Of a stretch of 38,410 bases of DNA, positions 3,771 through 13,134 are shown in pieces; positions within the stretch are counted from its first letter, which is position 1; the number at the start of each line of letters is the position of its first letter. Below the pieces are notes generated by a model, which was given only the letters and a program-made list of their open reading frames with translations, was not told the DNA's origin and made no database searches. The position numbers and the translations under genes are program-made. Location: the NCBI GenBank assembly GCA_001872945.1, contig MNYC01000049.1:1-38410 (forward strand), written 5' to 3'. The stretch comes from a bacterium CG2_30_37_16. GTDB lineage: Bacteria; Patescibacteriota; CPR2.

Positions 3771-5075
3771 ATGAAGAGAAAATGGTTAAAATTGTTTCTT
3801 ATTTTTTTATTGGCCTCAGGCTGCCTTATTGCTGTTGTGCCGAAAAAATATAGAGATAAAACTAGGATCAAATTGCCCAGTGATGTCAAAATTAAGCTCG
3901 GCTTGGATTTGCAGGGAGGCTCTCATATAGCCTATGAAGCTGATTTGGGTAAATACAATGCGGCGAACGATAAAGATAAAGCTATGGAAAGCTTGCGCAA
4001 TGTAATTGACAAAAGAGTCAACGCGTTGGGAATTGCAGAACCCAATATTTACACAACGGCTTTTGGAAATACGAGAAGAATTGTAATTGAGTTACCCGGT
4101 GTTGACGTGAATCAGGCTAAGGATTTAATTGGAAAAACAGCCAATTTAGAGTTTAAAGTTCCTTCTACCGATAGTTCGGCATGGGTAACGTCTAGTCTTA
4201 CCGGGAAAAACTTAAAAAAAGCGAATGTTGTTTTTGACCCGCAAACTAATGCGCCTCAAGTTTCGATTCAGTTTGATTCTGAAGGTGGTAAAATGTTTGC
4301 CGATATGACAAAAGCGAATGTTGGTAAAAATATTGGTATATTTCTTGATGGAGAGCTTGTTTCCGCGCCGACGGTTCAAACAGAAATTGTTGACGGTAAT
4401 GCTGTTATCACCGGCGGTTTTGACTACAAAGAAGCTAATAATTTAAAAATACAATTAAATGCGGGAGCTTTGCCGGTTAACGTCAAGCTTGTTGAAGAAC
4501 GTACGGTAGGAGCTACTTTGGGGCAGGAATCAGTCAAAAAAAGTTTATTTGCCGGTTCTTTAGCTTTGCTGTTCGTTTTCTTATTCATGACAGTTTACTA
4601 TCGTTTGCTGGGCTTCATTGCTTCAATTGCTCTTATAATATATACCTTAATAGTCATAGCCATTTTTAAAGGGGCATTATTTATCTTTCCGCCGGTTACT
4701 CTAACTTTGGCCGGTATAGCAGCATTTATTTTGTCAATTGGAATGGCGGTAGATGCTAATATTTTGATTTTTGAAAGGATGAAGGAAGAATTTAGATCCG
4801 GCAAAGGTTATGCAGCGGCTCTTGAGTCCGGTTTTAAAAGAGCTTGGCCATCTATTAGAGATTCAAACACCTCAACGCTCATTACCAGTGTGATCTTAAT
4901 TGCTTTTGGTACTACCGCAATTAAAGGCTTTGCTTACACGCTACTTATTGGTGTTGGCGTCTCAATGTTCACGGCAATCATAATAACCAGAACGCTTCTT
5001 AAGTCGATAATTAATACCCGTTTTACTAAAATACCAAAGCTGTTTGGGTTTCATGTTTTAGGAGGTGACAAATGA
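3771..5075 (+). CDS. secD: Protein translocase subunit SecD
   Basis: KLGLDLQGG, IGMAVDANILIFERMKEE and IRDSNTSTLI motifs; transmembrane segments. Confidence 0.97.
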   Translation: MKRKWLKLFLIFLLASGCLIAVVPKKYRDKTRIKLPSDVKIKLGLDLQGGSHIAYEADLGKYNAANDKDKAMESLRNVIDKRVNALGIAEPNIYTTAFGNTRRIVIELPGVDVNQAKDLIGKTANLEFKVPSTDSSAWVTSSLTGKNLKKANVVFDPQTNAPQVSIQFDSEGGKMFADMTKANVGKNIGIFLDGELVSAPTVQTEIVDGNAVITGGFDYKEANNLKIQLNAGALPVNVKLVEERTVGATLGQESVKKSLFAGSLALLFVFLFMTVYYRLLGFIASIALIIYTLIVIAIFKGALFIFPPVTLTLAGIAAFILSIGMAVDANILIFERMKEEFRSGKGYAAALESGFKRAWPSIRDSNTSTLITSVILIAFGTTAIKGFAYTLLIGVGVSMFTAIIITRTLLKSIINTRFTKIPKLFGFHVLGGDK

Positions 5076-5965
5076 ATATCATAGGTAAAAGAAAGTATTT
5101 ATACTTGCTGTCTCTTATAGTAATTATTCCCGGCGTAATTTCTTTATCAATTTGGAAGTTAAAACTTTCAATAGATTTCACGGGTGGTTCAGTAACGGAA
5201 GTATCCGGAACTACTAACCAAGATAAGGTTCGAGCTATCGCCGATAAGAATGGTTATCAAAATATTATAATTGCTGCCTCTGACAAAGTTCTTATTATGA
5301 AGACTAAGGAAATTCCCGATGCAAATCACAGGAAATTTATGGCTGAACTAATTAAAGAAATACCGACTGCTAAGGAAAACCGTTTCGAAAGTGTTGGCCC
5401 GTCAATTTCTAAGACTTTAGAGCGAAATGCTTTTTATACGGTGGCACTCGCTTCAGTCTTTATCGTGATTTTTCTTTCAATGGCTTTTAAAAAGGTTTCA
5501 AAACCATTAAATTCATGGGAATTTGGTTTGATGGCCGTAGTTGCATTGATTCATGACGTAATTGTGGTCGTGGGAATCTTTTCCATGCTTGGCCATTTTT
5601 TCGGTATAGAGATTGATAGCATGTTTATTACGGCTATATTAACCATTATTGGATTTTCGGTTCATGACACCATTGTTGTGTATGATAGAATTAGGGAAAA
5701 GGCTATAAAAGAGGGTGTGGATAATTTTGAACAACTGGTAAACAAAAGTTTGCTTGAGACTCTCACCAGATCAATTAATACTTCATTAACGGTAATTCTA
5801 ACTCTTCTTATTTTATTCTTGTTTGGCGGCGAATCAATTAAAATTTTTGTTCTGGCATTGCTCGTGGGCATAGCTACGGGGACTTATTCATCAATATTTG
5901 TGGCAAGTGCATTACTCGTAGACTCCTTTAAATTGAAAGGTAAATTAAAGACTAAAAATGCTTAA
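5072..5965 (+). CDS. secF: Protein translocase subunit SecF
   Basis: SIDFTGG, IHDVI, GFSVHDTIVVYDRIRE and GTYSSIFVA motifs; ATGA overlap with secD. Confidence 0.97.
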   Translation: MNIIGKRKYLYLLSLIVIIPGVISLSIWKLKLSIDFTGGSVTEVSGTTNQDKVRAIADKNGYQNIIIAASDKVLIMKTKEIPDANHRKFMAELIKEIPTAKENRFESVGPSISKTLERNAFYTVALASVFIVIFLSMAFKKVSKPLNSWEFGLMAVVALIHDVIVVVGIFSMLGHFFGIEIDSMFITAILTIIGFSVHDTIVVYDRIREKAIKEGVDNFEQLVNKSLLETLTRSINTSLTVILTLLILFLFGGESIKIFVLALLVGIATGTYSSIFVASALLVDSFKLKGKLKTKNA

Positions 5966-6632
5966 TAATTTGGATGGATGCGATAAGGGTCAGCTGTATC
6001 ACAACTTAAAGCCGGACGAAATATCGCATGTGCTTTCGAGTTTAATATCTAAAGAATATAAAAAAGGGCAAACAGTTTCTTCTTCGGAAAATGCGCCAGC
6101 TAAAATTTTTATTCTAAAAAAGGGAATGATAGAAATCTCTCAGCTCTCCAAAGAGGGTAAAAAGGTAATCATAGAGATTGTCAGGCCAGGAGGCATATTT
6201 GCAAATACTTCTTTTTCCTTTGAGGAAGATGAGGAATACAGCGACTTTGTTGAAGCGACATTGCCCTCGATTGTTTGTGAAATATCCAAAGATGATTTTA
6301 AAAAACTTGTTTCAAAAATTCCTCAACTGGCTATTAATTATATCAATATCATAGGCTTAAAATTGACAATGTCCGATGTTAGAATTAGGGATTTGGCTTT
6401 GCTGGATATTAAGAGTCGTTTAAAGCATGAATTAACTCACATGGCCAGGACTGTTGGCTTTGATAAGGGTGAATACTATGTTATACGGGGAAAAGTAACT
6501 CACGAGGACCTAGCTTCAATTATTGGAGCTTCAAGGGAGACCGTAACTAAGGCACTTCACAAATTAAAAGATGAGGGCTTTATTGACCACGATAAACTAA
6601 ACAGATTAATAGTAAGAATAAAAAAGATGTAA
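5958..6632 (+). CDS. Crp/Fnr family transcriptional regulator
   Basis: cNMP-binding-type N-terminal domain and C-terminal HTH THEDLASIIGASRETVTKAL; overlaps the secF end. Confidence 0.93.
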   Translation: MLNNLDGCDKGQLYHNLKPDEISHVLSSLISKEYKKGQTVSSSENAPAKIFILKKGMIEISQLSKEGKKVIIEIVRPGGIFANTSFSFEEDEEYSDFVEATLPSIVCEISKDDFKKLVSKIPQLAINYINIIGLKLTMSDVRIRDLALLDIKSRLKHELTHMARTVGFDKGEYYVIRGKVTHEDLASIIGASRETVTKALHKLKDEGFIDHDKLNRLIVRIKKM

Positions 6633-6636
6633 TTTT

Positions 6637-6679
6637 TGTGATATTTCTCATAGACTAAACTTAATTAATGCCCTATTAT
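6637..6679 (+). promoter_or_regulatory. CRP-type box plus sigma70 promoter in class II geometry
   Basis: TGTGA-tatttc-TCATA at 6637-6652 (9/10 to TGTGA-N6-TCACA); -35 TAGACT 6651-6656, 17-bp spacer, -10 TATTAT 6674-6679. The box centre is at -41.5 for +1 = 6686. Confidence 0.75.
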
Positions 6680-6685
6680 GATCTT

Positions 6686-6888
6686 AACTAATCTTTACTA
6701 GGGGTTTTAAAAGATCCGTCAAATAAGGATAGAAAGATTCGATCTTCTTGGGCCGTCGTGGCGACTCAGGGGTAGAAAAAAAGTGCTTTTAAGGGGTCTT
6801 AACTAGCTCTTAGGAAGATTGGTATGTAAAAAATATCCGAAAGGAGGGGGCTCAAAGCTTCGGCTGGACTACATGCCGGGGCTTTTTT
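6686..6888 (+). ncRNA. Putative ~200-nt structured ncRNA (6S RNA-like long hairpin with central bubble)
   Basis: Own promoter and terminator, no credible ORF. 6687-6717 pairs with 6794-6823 using G-U pairs, around a purine-rich bubble and an apical stem at about 6743-6776. Confidence 0.6.
6854..6888 (+). terminator. Rho-independent terminator
   Basis: AAAGCTTCGGC-10 nt loop-GCCGGGGCTTT followed by a T tract. Confidence 0.8.
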
Positions 6889-6890
6889 GT

Positions 6891-6919
6891 TTGATAAAAA
6901 AAATATTAATGGTTATACT
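6891..6919 (+). promoter_or_regulatory. recJ promoter; predicts a leaderless mRNA
   Basis: TTGATA-17-TATACT, then 6 nt to the ATG at 6926. Confidence 0.65.
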
Positions 6920-6925
6920 TACGAT

Positions 6926-8626
6926 ATGCAAAAAATAAAAGCGAAAAAATGGATAGTAAAGCTGAGGCCTTCCATAAACAAGTTAGCTAAAAAATACGAT
7001 GAAATTACCGCAATGCTTCTGTATAACAGAGGAATCGAGTTAGAGGAGCTTGCACAAGAGTTTTTAGATCCTGATTTCTATAATATACCCAATCCCATGA
7101 TTATTCCCGGTATGAAAAAAGGAACAGCTAGAATTATTCAGGCAATAGATAAAAAGGAAAAAATTTGTATTTATGGCGACTACGATGTGGATGGTGTAAC
7201 GGCAACAGCGCTTCTTATGAGTTTGTTTTCTAAAATAGGGATGGAAGTCGAATATTATATCCCATCTCGTATTGATGAAGGCTACGGCTTGAGTAAAAAA
7301 GTAATTCAAGAATTGGCAAAGAGCGGGGTCAACCTAATTATTACTGTTGATTGCGGTATCACAGCAGTTGATGAGGTTGGGGAGGCTAATTCTCTAGGTA
7401 TAGATGTTGTTATAACCGATCATCACGAACCTCCAGCAAAGCTTCCACAAGCAGTTTCCATTATTCATCCGGCGCTAAAGGGTAGTAAATACCCAACGAA
7501 AAATTTAGCCGGCGTGGGTGTTGCTTATAAGTTCGCCCAAGCTATTATGGAACAAATTAATTATTCAAAAAAGGTTGAGTTTTTAAAGTGGTCGCTTGAC
7601 TTAGTTGCTTTGGGAACGGTAGCAGATTTAGTGCCCTTACTTGGCGAAAATAGGGTGCTCGTTTATTACGGTTTAGTCGTTTTATCGAAGACAAATAGAA
7701 TCGGACTAAGGAAATTGTTTGAAGTTTCTTCAATTGACCCCATGGAGATGGACAGTTATAAAATTGCATTTCAACTAGCGCCAAGGATAAACGCTGCCGG
7801 AAGACTTTCTCACGCAAAAGAAGGATTAGAGCTTCTTTTAACGGATGACGAAGAAAGAGCAAAAGTATTAGCGGAGCATTTGTCAAAGCTAAATAGCGAG
7901 AGGCAGAAAAAAACTGAAAAAATTTTAATGGAGGCTTTTGGCAAAATTGATAATTTACCCGAAGACATGAAATTTATTGTATTACATTCGCCATTATGGT
8001 CCAGCGGAATTATTGGAATAGTCGCATCAAAAATTGTTGAGGCTTATGCTAGGCCGGTAATATTGCTTGAGGAAAACGGAGATGTATTTCATGGCTCCGG
8101 CAGGTCTATAGCAACCGTTGACCTATATAAAATATTGTCCAAATTGGAATCTCATTTTGTAAATTTCGGCGGTCATAAAATGGCAGCAGGAGTAACAATA
8201 AATAAAGCAAATTACGAAAATTTTCTTGAGCAACTGCATAAAATATGCAGCCAATCGATTAATAACGAAGACTTGGTTAATTTGGTTAAGATTGAGGCCC
8301 AGATAAACTTCAATCAAATTGATTATTCATTGCTTAAGACGATAGATAAGTTTAAACCCTTTGGAAATGAAAATCCGGCTCCAATTTTTATGACCGAAAA
8401 ACTGTTTGTAAAATATTTTGATTTAGTCGGTAAAAATAAGAACCACATTAAGCTATCATTGGTTGATGAATCAGGACTATCTTTTCATGCTATTGGTTTT
8501 GGCATGGGCGACGTCGAAATATCGTCCGGGGACGTAGTGGATATTGCATACAAACTCCATTTAAATGAATGGAACAATATGAAAAATATCGATTTAGTTA
8601 TTGAAGACATATGTGTAAAGAAATAG
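6926..8626 (+). CDS. recJ: Single-stranded-DNA-specific exonuclease RecJ
   Basis: GDYDVDG, TVDCG, TDHH, GTVAD, PRINAAGR and GGHKMAAG motifs. Start moved to ATG 6926 because the track's TTG 6887 lies in the terminator tail. Confidence 0.96.
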   Translation: MQKIKAKKWIVKLRPSINKLAKKYDEITAMLLYNRGIELEELAQEFLDPDFYNIPNPMIIPGMKKGTARIIQAIDKKEKICIYGDYDVDGVTATALLMSLFSKIGMEVEYYIPSRIDEGYGLSKKVIQELAKSGVNLIITVDCGITAVDEVGEANSLGIDVVITDHHEPPAKLPQAVSIIHPALKGSKYPTKNLAGVGVAYKFAQAIMEQINYSKKVEFLKWSLDLVALGTVADLVPLLGENRVLVYYGLVVLSKTNRIGLRKLFEVSSIDPMEMDSYKIAFQLAPRINAAGRLSHAKEGLELLLTDDEERAKVLAEHLSKLNSERQKKTEKILMEAFGKIDNLPEDMKFIVLHSPLWSSGIIGIVASKIVEAYARPVILLEENGDVFHGSGRSIATVDLYKILSKLESHFVNFGGHKMAAGVTINKANYENFLEQLHKICSQSINNEDLVNLVKIEAQINFNQIDYSLLKTIDKFKPFGNENPAPIFMTEKLFVKYFDLVGKNKNHIKLSLVDESGLSFHAIGFGMGDVEISSGDVVDIAYKLHLNEWNNMKNIDLVIEDICVKK

Positions 8627-10743
8627 AAAGAAAATTAAATCAAAAAAAAATTGCATACGATCCAAACGTTTTAGCGAAAGCTTGTGATTTTGCGGGAAAG
8701 GCGCATGAAGGTCAAAAAAGAGCAACCGGAGATCCCTATATTGCTCATCCTTTAGCTGTTGCTGAGATACTGGCGGATATGGGCATGGAATTTCATACTA
8801 TTATAGCGGCACTTCTTCATGACACCGTTGAAGACACCTCAATTTCACTAGATGAGATAGAAAAGCAGTTCGGCAAAGATATTAGAAGTTTAGTTAACGG
8901 CGTTACTAAATTAAGCGAAATTGAGTTTTCCAGGCAATATCAATTAGAATCACTTACTGAGCGTCAGGAAATGGAAGTAGAGAATTTTAGAAAGTTTTTT
9001 TTAGCAATAGCTGAGGATTTAAGAGTGGTTTTAATAAAATTGGCCGATCGTTTGCATAATTTAGAAACCTTAGGTGCGAAATCGCCTGCTAGTCAAAAAA
9101 GGGTTGCCCAAGAAACGCTGGAAATATATGTTCCTCTTGCGGACAGGCTCGGTATTGGTCAATTAAAGGTTGATTTAGAAGACTTGGCATTCCGATATTT
9201 TATGCCGGACGAATATCAAAAAGTCCGTTTACTGGTTTCTGAAAAAATTGATGATCGCAAAAAAAATGTGAATATACTGCAAAAAAGTATTCCTCGACTT
9301 CTAACAAAAAATCAAATAAAAGTCATTAAAATAGAGGGCAGAGCAAAGCATTTTTACAGCATTTATAAAAAATTAAAAAAAAGCGATGGGGATATCGATA
9401 AAATTTATGATTTGATGGCCATACGTATTATCGTGCCGGAAGAATCTGACTGCTACAAGGTTTTGGGGGTTATTCATCAACAATACAAACCGTTAATTTA
9501 CAGGATAAAGGATTATATCGCCGTGCCCAAACCTAATGGCTATAAATCGCTTCATACGACCGTTTTTGGTTTGGATGGTAGAATAACGGAAATACAAATC
9601 AGAACTCCCAAGATGCATGATGAGGCAGAAATGGGAATTGCCGCTCATTGGCATTACAATCAGTCAAAATCAAAAATATTTTCGGTTTTTACTCGTTCTT
9701 CGTATGCACCGAAAAATGATTTGGAATGGGTTAAGCAACTTGCAGAGGCCCAAAAAGGCTTTAATGATAAAGAACTGATAGAAAATTTAAAGATAGATTT
9801 TTTTCATAATAGAATTTTTATTTTTTCCCCAAAAGGAAATATTTTTAATCTTCCGGAAGGAGCAACTCCGATAGATTTTGCGTATCTAGTGCATACCGAA
9901 ATTGGTAATCATTATGTTGGCGCCAAGGTAAATGGTAAGATCGTAAATTTAAACTATAAATTAGAAAATCGAGATATAGTAGAAATATTGACTTCTCCTA
10001 AAGCAAAACCTAGTAGGGATTGGCTTAATTTTGTTAAAACTAGTGGCGCCTCCCAAAATATAAGAAGTTGGTTTCGAAAAGAGTCTAGAGAAGATAATTT
10101 AAAATCGGGCGAAGAAACGTTAGTTTCAAAATTAAAAGCTGTCGGCTTGACGTTGTCTGACATCGACGAAAGAATTTTATCTTTTTTTAACGTCAAAAAT
10201 ACAGATGACCTCTTTGTTCTTATCGGAGAAGGCCAGATAACGTCTAGGCAAGTAACTAATAGGATTCTAGATCCGGGAACGGAAAAACAAAAAAGACCGT
10301 CAAAAACAAAAAGAACTGAGTTGGTTATAAAAGGAACGGAAGGAATGCCGTATCGGCTCGCAAAATGCTGTCAACCTTGTTACGGCGATAAAATTACCGG
10401 TTATGTTACTCAGGGCCAAGGAATAACAGTTCACAGGACAAACTGCGCCAATATTATAAGAAATAATCCAAATAAATTGACGGAAGTTAGCTGGCAATCG
10501 GGTAGTGCTATCTATCAAATACCGATTTTGGTTAAAGCCAAAAACAGAATCGGTCTCTTAAAAGATATTACATATTTGCTTACAGATAAAAAAATTAATA
10601 TAGGTTCAATAAAAAGTAAGCATGAGGGAGATATGACTGTTATTGAGATGCTAATCGAAATTGAAAAGATGGTATTATTACCGATTGTAATTAATAATCT
10701 TTTGGGCATTAAAGATGTCTATGAGGTTAAGCGCTTAAGATAA
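8611..10743 (+). CDS. rel: Long RSH bifunctional (p)ppGpp synthetase/hydrolase
   Basis: HD hydrolase (PYIAHP, LHDTVED, KLADRLHN), synthetase (GYKSLHT, EIQIRT), TGS, zinc-finger (AKCCQP, HRTNC) and ACT domains. Confidence 0.96.
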   Translation: MCKEIERKLNQKKIAYDPNVLAKACDFAGKAHEGQKRATGDPYIAHPLAVAEILADMGMEFHTIIAALLHDTVEDTSISLDEIEKQFGKDIRSLVNGVTKLSEIEFSRQYQLESLTERQEMEVENFRKFFLAIAEDLRVVLIKLADRLHNLETLGAKSPASQKRVAQETLEIYVPLADRLGIGQLKVDLEDLAFRYFMPDEYQKVRLLVSEKIDDRKKNVNILQKSIPRLLTKNQIKVIKIEGRAKHFYSIYKKLKKSDGDIDKIYDLMAIRIIVPEESDCYKVLGVIHQQYKPLIYRIKDYIAVPKPNGYKSLHTTVFGLDGRITEIQIRTPKMHDEAEMGIAAHWHYNQSKSKIFSVFTRSSYAPKNDLEWVKQLAEAQKGFNDKELIENLKIDFFHNRIFIFSPKGNIFNLPEGATPIDFAYLVHTEIGNHYVGAKVNGKIVNLNYKLENRDIVEILTSPKAKPSRDWLNFVKTSGASQNIRSWFRKESREDNLKSGEETLVSKLKAVGLTLSDIDERILSFFNVKNTDDLFVLIGEGQITSRQVTNRILDPGTEKQKRPSKTKRTELVIKGTEGMPYRLAKCCQPCYGDKITGYVTQGQGITVHRTNCANIIRNNPNKLTEVSWQSGSAIYQIPILVKAKNRIGLLKDITYLLTDKKINIGSIKSKHEGDMTVIEMLIEIEKMVLLPIVINNLLGIKDVYEVKRLR

Positions 10744-10784: not shown

Positions 10785-12065
10785 ATGGCAAAAAAAATCA
10801 TTCAAAAACCAAGAGGAACTCAGGATATTCTTCCAGCTGACCAGAAATACTGGAATTTTGTAGTTGATAATTTTAGGAACGTTTTGGAGGGTTGCGGTTT
10901 CGGCAGAATTATTACTCCAACATTTGAAGATACGGCATTATTTGAAAGGGGTATAGGAACATCTACGGATATTGTTGAAAAAGAAATGTATACTTTTAAA
11001 GACAAATCCGATAATTCGATAACATTGAGGCCGGAGGGTACGGCTTCCGTGGTAAGAGCATATTTAGAGGATGGTATTTCATCATGGCTGCAACCGGTCA
11101 AATTATATTATATTAATGCATTATTTAGGTACGAACGGCCGCAGGCAGGACGTTTTAGGGAGCATCATCAAATAGGAGCGGAAATTATTGGTGATCCCAG
11201 TCCGTTAAGAGACGTTGAAATGATTGCGTTAATAAGTAGATGCCTAAAGAGGCTTCATTTGGACAACGTTTCTCTTCAGCTTAATTCAATTGGTTGTCAA
11301 GTTTGTCGTCCTCAGTATATGCGTTCTCTCAAGGCTTATTACAAGGAGCACTTAAATAGCGTTTGCGAAGATTGCACCCGAAGATACGACAAAAACCCCT
11401 TGAGGCTACTTGATTGTAAGGAGAAGGCTTGTCGTTTAGTGGCCGATAATGCTCCTCAGCTGATTAATACTCTTTGCCCCGATTGTCACGAACATTTTAG
11501 AACAATATTAGAATTTTTAGACGATTTGGGGGTTTCTTATGAATTAAATACAAAGTTAGTAAGGGGCCTTGATTATTATACGAGAACAGTTTTCGAATTT
11601 TGGTATGTTGATGATAACTTTGGTTCGCAAAATGCAATTTGCGGTGGTGGGCGTTATGACATGCTTGTAGAAATATTGGGCGGAAAACCAACTGCAGGTA
11701 TCGGCTTTGGCGTGGGAATAGAAAGGTTAATGCTAGTTTTAAAGAATGAAGAGAGCGTTTTAGTGCCGGAACTGAATGCGCCCAAAATTTACCTTGCTCA
11801 GTTAGGCGGAGCGGCTAAGAAACAGGCATTTATGCTTGCACAGTCTCTTCTAGATAACGATATACCTATTGCTTCCAGATTCGATAAAAAGTCTGTTGGT
11901 GAGCAGCTAAAAGAGGCAAGCGACCTGAAGGTTCCTTATGCAATTATTATTGGACAGAAGGAAACTATTGATGGTACTGCCATAGTTAAAGATATGTATA
12001 CCGGTTTTCAGGAAACATTACCACAGGAAATGTTGGTTAGTGAAGTAATCAAGAGGCTTAGTTGA
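10785..12065 (+). CDS. hisS: Histidine--tRNA ligase
   Basis: PRGTQD, LRPEGTA, FRYERPQAGRFREHHQ, LVRGLDYY and GGGRYD motifs. Confidence 0.98.
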   Translation: MAKKIIQKPRGTQDILPADQKYWNFVVDNFRNVLEGCGFGRIITPTFEDTALFERGIGTSTDIVEKEMYTFKDKSDNSITLRPEGTASVVRAYLEDGISSWLQPVKLYYINALFRYERPQAGRFREHHQIGAEIIGDPSPLRDVEMIALISRCLKRLHLDNVSLQLNSIGCQVCRPQYMRSLKAYYKEHLNSVCEDCTRRYDKNPLRLLDCKEKACRLVADNAPQLINTLCPDCHEHFRTILEFLDDLGVSYELNTKLVRGLDYYTRTVFEFWYVDDNFGSQNAICGGGRYDMLVEILGGKPTAGIGFGVGIERLMLVLKNEESVLVPELNAPKIYLAQLGGAAKKQAFMLAQSLLDNDIPIASRFDKKSVGEQLKEASDLKVPYAIIIGQKETIDGTAIVKDMYTGFQETLPQEMLVSEVIKRLS

Positions 12066-12501
12066 CGAAAATCTGTTTTATAAACTATGGCTGCCGGCTA
12101 AACACTGCCGAGAGCGAAGAACTAAAAAGGGATTTAAACCCTATTGAGCAAATATTTAATTCAAGAATATGCGACTAAAAAGATTGTTGCTGGTTCGTAT
12201 CTAAGCATTTATAAAAGACCCCTAATTAAGATTCAGGATGGATGCAAGAACTATTGCAGCTATTGCATTGTTCCTTATTTACGAATGAAAGAATATAATA
12301 GGCCGCTAAAAGATATAGTTGGAACGGCAAAGAAATATGAACAAAATAATTATTCGGAAAAATAAAGACAATTATTATATTGGAACTGCTTCTAACTTTT
12401 CTGAAGTGAGAGTAAAAACAAACCAGCCGCTTGATCGTCAGATTTGTGATGTACAAATCCTACAAGCGGCTGATTCTTATTTACTAGGGAATTTACTTTA
12501 G
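12062..12501 (+). pseudogene. mtaB: Collapsed MiaB/MtaB-type radical SAM methylthiotransferase pseudogene
   Basis: Three fragments in order in separate ORFs: TTG 12062 MTKICFINYGCRLNTAES (UPF0004-like N-terminus), KIQDGCKNYCSYCIVPYLR (CxxxCxxC) and a TRAM-like C-terminus. Only 440 bp in total. Confidence 0.85.
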
Positions 12502-13134
12502 TCCAAGACTATTTGCGATGCCTAATACGTGATTAACATAGGATAATGAATGGTTATATCTGTATAGGGCATTTACAACGTTACCGTTGGCTGCACCGTT
12601 AGCTCTTAGGTAGTTGGCACCGGTATAGACCGCATCATAAACGTTGTTTATAGCGGAATTACCATCATTGTTACCGTCTTGACTGTAGGCCCTATAGGTA
12701 CTCGGTAAGAACTGCATGGGGCCAACTGCACCGGCATAAGAAGTGACATTGGTGGTATTTGATTGATGGGATTCAACTACGTGAACTGCAGCAATTACCT
12801 GCCAAGGTACCTGATATTTCTCTGAAGCCTTCTGGTAAAGAGTAGCAAATTCAGTTTTATATCCGGCTTTCTTAAGCGCCTGTTCGATCGAAAGACTTTT
12901 TTCGATGGTTACTTGGTGCTGTTCAATTTTACCCTTCATGTTGTCAAGGGATTGTTTCTTGAAGATTTGAAGTTGGTAGTTGTAACGCTGTTCAACTTCG
13001 GTTTTTCGATCCACAACATTTATTATTGATATTGGTAATTTCAAGTTTTTTTGTCTGGAAGAACTAGCAGCTTCAGCATAATTCCCGTTAGTGATTAGGC
13101 CCAAGATTATTAGGACCATTACTAATTTCTTCAT
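12493..13134 (-). CDS. Secreted lytic transglycosylase (SLT/lysozyme-like domain)
   Basis: Signal peptide; PWQVIAAVHVVES, SYAGAVGPMQFLPST and ALYRYNHS motifs. Confidence 0.9.
   Translation of the reverse strand: MKKLVMVLIILGLITNGNYAEAASSSRQKNLKLPISIINVVDRKTEVEQRYNYQLQIFKKQSLDNMKGKIEQHQVTIEKSLSIEQALKKAGYKTEFATLYQKASEKYQVPWQVIAAVHVVESHQSNTTNVTSYAGAVGPMQFLPSTYRAYSQDGNNDGNSAINNVYDAVYTGANYLRANGAANGNVVNALYRYNHSLSYVNHVLGIANSLGLK

Follow-up and report, generated by a model that had tools for sequence, protein, structure and literature searches.

The crp-recJ region of CG2_30_37_16

The region between crp and recJ was examined in contig MNYC01000049.1 of the bacterium CG2_30_37_16 (assembly GCA_001872945.1; Patescibacteriota, CPR2), a groundwater bacterium whose genome (G000) comprises 895,686 bases (~0.9 Mb) in 61 contigs. 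The whole 38,410-nt stretch that was analysed is referred to as the window. The crp gene (5958 to 6632, + strand) encodes a Crp/Fnr-family transcription factor of 224 amino acids (aa) with cNMP_binding and HTH_Crp_2 Pfam domains, and is separated by 294 nt from recJ (+ strand; ATG at 6926 to 6928, end at 8626), which encodes a protein with DHH, DHHA1 and RecJ_OB domains. In this gap, a CRP-type box and a promoter precede a predicted non-coding RNA with a rod-like fold, and it is likely, from the comparison of genomes described below, that crp and the RNA together constitute a regulatory module of two parts.

The box, TGTGA-tatttc-TCATA (6637 to 6652, centre 6644.5, + strand), lies 4 bases 3' of the TAA stop codon of crp (6630 to 6632, + strand) and agrees with TGTGA-N6-TCACA at 9 of 10 bases. 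It overlaps a -35 remnant of the GACT/GACA type, TAGACT (6651 to 6656, + strand), which is separated by a 17-nt spacer from the -10 element TATTAT (6674 to 6679, + strand), and this pair scored 9/12 in a promoter scan. The start predicted from the -10 element is position 6686, which would place the box centre at -41.5. An initial annotation, made from the sequence of the window, had described the box, both promoter elements and their spacing, and all were recovered where it had placed them, the -41.5 position holding for a start at 6686.

The predicted transcript (6686 to 6888, + strand, ~203 nt) contains no open reading frame (ORF) and consists of a 142-nt rod, a 25-nt spacer (6829 to 6853, + strand) and an intrinsic terminator (6854 to 6888, + strand), in agreement with the ORF-free, terminated transcript proposed initially. 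The terminator has a GC-rich hairpin (6854 to 6885) and a U-rich segment (6883 to 6892), and the hairpin with its U-run folds at -20.3 kcal/mol (z -2.8); a simple terminator scan made no call at this hairpin. In an alignment of G000 with two genomes of the same family, G001 and G002, four pairs in the terminator stem (columns 181-191/202-212) are altered on both sides. The spacer carries a small UCC-GAAA-GGA hairpin and a G-rich run, GGAGGGGG (6843 to 6850). A spacer with this run between rod and terminator was found only in G000, G001 and G002, with AAGGGGG kept in all three, and no start codon was seen by eye at a usable distance after the run.

Past the terminator and outside the module, a promoter-like pair TTGATA-17-TATACT (6891 to 6919, + strand) scored 10/12 in the promoter scan, consistent with the earlier proposal that recJ has its own promoter. 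As the -10 element TATACT ends at 6919 and the recJ ATG is at 6926 to 6928, transcription would start on or next to the ATG and recJ looks leaderless; this sequence is identical in G001. The gene order in the window is secD (3771 to 5075), secF (5072 to 5965), crp and recJ, followed by relA/spoT (8611 to 10743), hisS (10785 to 12065) and a convergent gene for an SLT transglycosylase (12493 to 13134).

The box is not enriched in the G000 genome as a whole, as nine near-boxes (at most one mismatch) were found, compared with 13 matches to a control pattern. The chance of one of these nine falling in the 54-nt gap concerned is ~5 in 10,000. Within G000 alone, the case against chance is modest, and the argument comes from comparison with other genomes.

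The Crp-family regulator

The crp product matched PF00027 (cNMP_binding; 55.6 bits, 5.3e-15), PF13545 (HTH_Crp_2; 47.4 bits, 1.9e-12) and PF00325 (26.6 bits), each above its cut-off, and reached no NCBIfam equivalog cut-off. Its closest relative of solved structure is the Crp/Fnr-family regulator 3d0s_A (E 1.6e-16), one of 45 PDB entries at E<=1e-5, which include Crp/Fnr regulators and CAP. It is the single Crp homolog detected in G000 with the Crp query used.

A recognition helix S-R-E-T-(V/A/I)-T-(K/R) is kept across seven aligned Crp orthologs (SRETVTK in G000), and we take it to resemble that of CRPs which read TGTGA, assuming the residue roles of E. coli. By contrast, the Glu and Arg that bind the phosphate of cAMP are not kept: 'fgelsi...prtssa' of 3d0s_A aligns with 'fantsf...ysdfvea' in G000, and the orthologs keep D-F-(A/V)-E-A in place of the residues of the phosphate-binding cassette, the pocket positions (Glu, Arg-Ser/Thr) being presumed from E. 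coli CAP. As the phosphate-binding residues are missing, the signal is probably not classical cAMP binding.

The start of crp overlaps the secF stop by 8 bases (5958 to 5965), which makes co-transcription and translational coupling of crp with secDF probable in the family of G000. In other genomes, crp is located after genes unrelated to secF.

Conservation of the crp-box-RNA arrangement

Crp homologs were found in 4 of 32 genomes of the class at E<=1e-5 and in 29 of 401 sampled genomes of the phylum at E<=1e-10, and at least one box with no more than one mismatch was present near the crp homolog in 18 of the 31 loci scanned. All eight genomes with a close Crp ortholog carry crp, box, promoter and rod RNA in this order and on the same strand. 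They are G000, G001 and G002 (one family), G004 (same class), and G093, G042, G137 and G116 (a second class). Six aligned orthologs share 84, 54, 36, 42, 35 and 32% identity with the G000 protein, the split crp of G116 having been left out of the alignment. In G116, crp is divided into two overlapping frames of 144 and 92 aa (L044:1483-2168, - strand), with the box and RNA downstream intact; the split may be a frameshift, a pseudogene or an assembly error.

The layout shared by all eight loci is [T/A]GTGA-N6-T[C/T]A[C/T][A/T] followed directly by GAC[A/T], where the box has at most one mismatch, and a -10-like hexamer, read by eye, is present 19 to 21 nt after the box in each, ahead of a stretch that lacks ORFs and folds as a rod. 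The distance from the crp stop to the box is 4 to 118 nt in the seven loci where the stop was located, and in G116 the RNA starts ~95 nt past the crp match. In the second class no spacer lies between rod and terminator, and the G004 rod has a U-run at its own end.

The genes on either side of the module vary. Those upstream encode SecF, LexA, a Macro-domain protein, HisRS or a methylpurine glycosylase (MPG), and those downstream RecJ, a protein without a Pfam match, a Zn-ribbon protein or a convergent SLT transglycosylase. The regulator with its own target cassette that was originally described in G000 is therefore kept while its neighbours change. In G042, the crp-RNA pair sits between hisS and the convergent SLT gene, and in G000 the same two genes lie 4 to 6 kb downstream of it, which fits vertical descent with rearrangement.

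The hisS-SLT gap of G000 (12066 to 12492, 427 nt) corresponds to the position held by the crp-RNA pair in G042. Considered as a potential location of a second RNA, it gave no Rfam match. A short frame, G-C-K-N-Y-C-S-Y-C-I-V-P-Y-L-R, with a CxxxCxxC arrangement was seen there by eye and is possibly the remnant of a radical-SAM gene.

Structure of the RNA

The + strand of 6686 to 6888 folds at -61.9 kcal/mol (z -3.05), which none of 200 shuffled sequences equalled, whereas the - strand folds no better than shuffles (z -0.07). This bears out the initial choice of the + strand as the RNA strand, and the three stems named at that time are all present in the minimum-energy fold. The rod domain (6686 to 6828, + strand; 156.7 bits with our model R1) is closed by a helix of ~6687 to 6717 with 6794 to 6823, which leads via an A/U-rich bubble to an apical hairpin (6745 to 6772) with a CGUG loop (6757 to 6760).

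The rods of the eight loci are 138 to 160 nt long, with a closing helix of both ends of 24 to 33 bp and an apical hairpin of 7 to 13 bp capped by CGUG, CGAG, UGUG or UGAG (YGWG). The 5' strand of the bubble is 11 to 32 nt (37-58% A) and the 3' strand 7 to 23 nt (60-87% A+U), where the figures for G000 and G001 are minima as the duplex routine extends weak pairs into the bubble. The sense strand gave z values of -1.8 to -8.1 in all eight rods, and folded better than the antisense strand in six.

The arms are hardly alignable across lineages (12 to 23 of 36 positions), and a MAFFT alignment of all eight RNAs left them unaligned, with three pairs predicted. Arm-duplex energies and a loop-anchored alignment were used for this reason. 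The 5' and 3' arms of the same RNA form duplexes of -22.7 to -34.7 kcal/mol, compared with -6.0 to -22.1 kcal/mol for arms taken from different lineages. In the loop-anchored alignment of the apical hairpin, 85.4% of cells are paired (63.2% in shuffles, 34-52% in slid registers). Seven of the 12 pairs of this stem are altered on both sides, and none of 500 shuffles reached its covariation score, with the caveat that relatedness by itself, in the absence of structure, can make sequences score above shuffles. RNAalifold predicted 63 pairs for G000, G001 and G002, eight with double changes, terminator included, and 32 pairs for G042, G137 and G116, five with double changes. Conserved box spacing and covariation of the apical stem, two features for which the initial annotation had looked to relatives, were seen there within the limits of these eight sequences. 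The only sequence conserved across lineages is an 8-nt apical motif, G-Y-Y-G-W-G-G-Y, half buried in the stem.

In G004, a second long inverted repeat, CCAGATCGGGGTAATTGGTTGGGAAA ... TTTCCCCTAACTAATTCCCCGATCG, was seen by eye 3' of the rod (L036:2430-2580) in a gene-free stretch of ~530 nt.

The rod could in principle act in cis, as a 3' untranslated stabiliser or terminator of secDF-crp or as a leader or attenuator of recJ-relA, with the box serving crp autoregulation or as a roadblock, but we regard this as very improbable. In G000 no terminator is present between crp and the RNA (4-nt gap), so crp transcripts must run into the RNA, and recJ is the next gene on the same strand in G000, G001 and G002. 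Against this, the register of -10 and box conserved between crp and rod at all eight loci points to an internal promoter, and recJ has its own promoter-like site past the terminator. A 5' leader role is ruled out by G042, G137 and G116, where the next gene is the convergent SLT gene, and the downstream gene differs again elsewhere. The folds showed no alternative pairing of the anti-terminator type, and termination would not call for a 140-nt rod whose apical hairpin covaries next to a separate terminator.

Searches for further relatives of the RNA

A model built from the RNAs of G042, G137 and G116 gave its best non-training matches to the RNAs of G093 (30.9 bits, E 3.8e-4) and G004 (23 bits, E 0.013), both located at the position downstream of crp. 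A DNA search of 41 relatives matched the RNA in G001 and G002 only. Model R1 found four of the 32 genomes of the class at E<=0.01, namely G000, G001, G002 and G025; the G025 match (21.8 bits) was located inside a phage-like ORF and was rejected. Model R2 found three of four genomes in the order of G042 and three of five in its class, and missed G093. Among the 11 loci in genome contigs and nine in metagenome contigs retrieved by pattern scans, the true matches were all copies of the RNAs of G000, G001 and G002, and the others were chance matches. All 24 sequencing runs listed for this DNA are DNA runs, with no RNA run among them.

Other potential targets of Crp

The RNA promoter has the sole perfect box in the G001 and G042 genomes and the only good intergenic box in several genomes, other near-boxes that were examined being mostly inside ORFs. 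From these counts, the Crp regulon looks tiny.

A second intergenic box, AGTGATATTTATCACA, was found just after dnaE in G000 (C12:684-699, L004) and is conserved in G001 (C27:3713-3728). It lies ~71 nt upstream of the start predicted for a promoter TAGACA-17-TAAAAT, which precedes an ORF for an acidic protein of 116 aa without a Pfam match. The same Crp may have a second target here, of the class I type. A perfect box, TGTGACTTAGTTCACA, in G004 (C58:1724-1739; L074:1501-1516) is followed by GACA, a -10 element, a ribosome-binding site and an ORF for a basic protein of ~50 aa, with the same promoter layout as that of the RNA. In G093, 27 near-boxes were found compared with 11 for the control; ~12 have the form TGTGA(Y)A(Y)-N4-TGACA and are spread over many contigs, and look like a recurring promoter-upstream motif or repeat and not Crp sites.

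More distant Crp homologs (~30-35% identity) in G323, G377 and G295 (L040, L041 and L042) have a TGTGA-N6-TCACA-type box directly 3' of crp, and the genes behind these boxes are redox genes (FMN_red/flavodoxin-like, AhpC/TSA-thioredoxin-like and glutaredoxin). This is a hint, and no more, that the Crp clade responds to redox or oxygen stress.

A base-pairing small RNA (sRNA) would be an ordinary component of such a stress regulon, and the rod could be the non-coding arm of the Crp regulon, pairing with mRNAs via its bubble or apical loop in the way of FnrS, CyaR, OxyS, GcvB or SgrS. A regulator gene beside a stand-alone, terminated sRNA matches cassettes known from other bacteria, and the bubble offers 11 to 32 unpaired nucleotides. 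We consider this possible but doubtful, as the search for a single-stranded seed common to the lineages found none: A/U richness is all that their bubbles have in common, and the one conserved sequence is the partly buried apical motif. A closing helix of the length found here is also unusual for sRNAs of the seed type.

Comparison with the 6S and signal recognition particle RNA families

The initial annotation had interpreted the RNA as a divergent 6S RNA or a new sRNA switched on by a dedicated sensor. A new sRNA under such a sensor fits the findings, but membership of the 6S family is not supported. The further suggestion made initially, that the RNA could be a global transcription or dormancy switch, is speculative. 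No Rfam 15 family matched the window at gathering threshold, and RF00013 (6S; covariance-model cut-off 46.4 bits) had no match in 6550 to 7000 or in the whole G000 genome at E<=10, contrary to what the 6S proposal had led one to expect, nor in six related loci at E<=1. The matches to other families that did appear, SpR08 (20.6 of 80 bits), BSnc120, RMST_10 and pan in 6550 to 7000 at E<=10, and MicX (29.6 of 75 bits, opposite strand) and a toxic-sRNA match on a terminator in the six related loci at E<=1, were far under the cut-offs, those in 6550 to 7000 at chance level, and all were rejected.

RF00013 did match elsewhere in G004 (L064:119-274, - strand, 63.3 bits) and G093 (L065:1501-1697, + strand, 45.5 bits), on contigs other than those with the crp-linked RNA. 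The canonical 6S gene of G004 and the probable one of G093, which scores just under the cut-off, have ordinary promoters with no CRP-type box. Both are immediately 3' of a gene for a Peptidase_M50 protein of ~210 aa, which may be a marker of 6S synteny in the candidate phyla radiation (CPR). In G000, a search for canonical 6S RNA by motif regular expression gave coding matches only, nhmmer with the 6S sequences of G004 and G093 gave one match (E 0.18) within a coding region, and tblastn for the M50 peptidase gave none.

It is quite unlikely that the rod is the true, highly divergent 6S RNA of the lineage (an ssrS/bsrA ortholog), which would bind the sigma-A holoenzyme and template product RNA (pRNA). 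The shape is compatible, with paired ends, a central bubble and an apical stem in ~140-200 nt, and the 6S role is unfilled, by the RF00013 test, in G000, G001, G002 and G042, where no match was found; however, RF00013 was found in just one of the 32 genomes of the class, so its absence from the closest genomes is uninformative. The RNA lies in a secDF-recJ-relA-hisS neighbourhood in G000 and next to hisS in G042, and B. subtilis bsrA is presumably located near a secDF-recJ-rel-hisS region. This argument from synteny, also made initially, is weak, as the RNA travels with crp and not with recJ in the three genomes where SLT is next. The absence of RF00013 from the crp-linked loci and the separate 6S gene of G004, and probably of G093, both stand against identity with 6S.

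Signal recognition particle (SRP) RNA was considered because none was detected in G000, G001, G002, G004, G042, G093 or G137 (RF00169 in 0/1 and 0/5 genomes, RF01854 in 0/5), in searches that detect these families in 13 and 11, respectively, of 14 control genomes. In the lineages concerned, SRP RNA has either diverged beyond the reach of the models or of the first-look filter, or is missing from the assemblies. The rod was rejected as an SRP RNA (RF00169, RF01854) since no SRP family matched 6550 to 7000 at E<=10.

Proposed function of the module

The best explanation overall, which we hold to be somewhat better than an even proposition, is that a dedicated Crp-family activator drives a new, stand-alone structured RNA that would act as a protein-binding decoy, possibly of RNA polymerase. 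A site at about -41.5 is the geometry of class II activation by CRP/FNR proteins. A Crp dimer, on a signal other than classical cAMP binding, would bind the box and recruit RNA polymerase in the class II manner, switching the RNA on. Basal levels of the RNA may also arise by read-through from secDF-crp, as crp and the RNA are not separated by a terminator.

More tentatively, the RNA would then act in trans. Binding of a protein is suggested by the conservation of shape without that of sequence. The decoy mechanism itself, with RNA polymerase as the leading candidate target, is a possibility to which we give well under even weight. RNA polymerase is the first candidate given the precedents of 6S and Ms1, and a truncated 6S-1 RNA with short arms is reported to cycle on polymerase still (PMC8876501). 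The fullest version, in which the rod is a signal-inducible RNA-polymerase decoy and a second, non-6S mimic of an open promoter under its own Crp-type sensor, possibly one for redox or oxygen stress, is rather unlikely.

Several points weigh against this explanation. The transcript, its start and its ends are predictions, and the promoter scan by itself is at chance level (5 sites found, 4.9 expected). Activation in preference to repression is read from geometry only, and as the GACA-type -35 remnant is kept, the box could also repress. In two rods the sense strand folds less well than the antisense (z -1.78 and -2.30 for G002; -3.91 and -5.01 for G093), the apical motif was defined after the sequences had been viewed, and the sample is eight sequences from ~6 lineages. 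The model from G042, G137 and G116 scores the RNAs of G002 and G001 at 12.5 bits (E 1.3) and 10.9 bits (E 2.8), and lists no match to that of G000 at E<=10. As its scores are marginal or absent for the closest family, homology across the classes rests on position, architecture and the apical motif. The polymerase-decoy part is further weakened by the RF00013 results and the coexisting 6S genes described above, by the shortness of the apical arm, and by a bubble larger than is usual for 6S.

Significance and comparison with known systems

CPR bacteria (Patescibacteria) combine very small genomes with a small set of regulators, and to our knowledge, as far as our searches reached, almost no regulatory RNAs have been described in them; literature searches found no paper on 6S RNA or sRNAs tied to Crp in CPR. 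The chief recognisable target of this transcription factor, and in some genomes the only one, would be a structured RNA. That the pair is kept across two classes while its surroundings are reshuffled suggests that a conserved signalling pathway acts through the RNA. The module would add a new RNA family to the catalogues. The organisms are uncultured, but the triplet of regulator, operator and RNA is testable and open to reconstitution in E. coli or in vitro. Were the decoy mechanism true, this would be a new class of polymerase-binding RNA, and one gene plus one RNA could provide a global transcription brake in the tiny CPR genomes, beside or replacing 6S. An ordinary base-pairing sRNA would still be among the first regulator-linked sRNAs proposed for CPR.

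The rod resembles 6S RNAs (RF00013; ssrS, bsrA/bsrB) in its length of ~140-200 nt, long interrupted end helix, central bubble, apical stem-loop, and own promoter and terminator. It differs in having no covariance-model similarity to them and in occurring alongside a canonical 6S in G004 and, probably, in G093. Relative to typical 6S dimensions, its apical arm is short (7-13 bp) and its A-rich bubble larger (11-32 by 7-23 nt), and its promoter has a dedicated Crp box, whereas 6S promoters are typically housekeeping or growth-phase promoters.

Ms1 and other 6S-like actinobacterial RNAs (PMC4191392, PMC9130861, PMC8539372) are, like the rod, structured RNAs related to 6S by shape rather than by sequence family, and offer a precedent for a second, lineage-specific polymerase-binding RNA. 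Ms1 is ~300 nt long and binds core polymerase, whereas polymerase binding by the rod is conjectural, and the rod was compared with Ms1 via Rfam scans only.

The rod would share with FnrS and CyaR a stand-alone sRNA gene, a Crp/Fnr-family site near -41.5 and a place as the non-coding arm of a regulon. The E. coli RNAs are Hfq-dependent seed sRNAs of ~90-120 nt with Crp/Fnr-dependent promoters, and are unlinked to the regulator gene, whereas the rod is 140 nt, is encoded immediately 3' of its regulator and is the only good target in some genomes. OxyR-OxyS, GcvA-GcvB and SgrR-SgrS are divergent pairs from proteobacteria with regulators of the LysR or other families. As in those pairs, a dedicated factor is encoded beside the sRNA that it would activate and the two are inherited together, but here the genes are in tandem, the factor is of the Crp family, the hosts are CPR bacteria and the RNA fold is different. 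A factor next to the sRNA that it controls and a Crp/Fnr-dependent sRNA are thus both known. What is new is the family of the RNA, its tandem arrangement with the regulator gene and the radiation to which the hosts belong.

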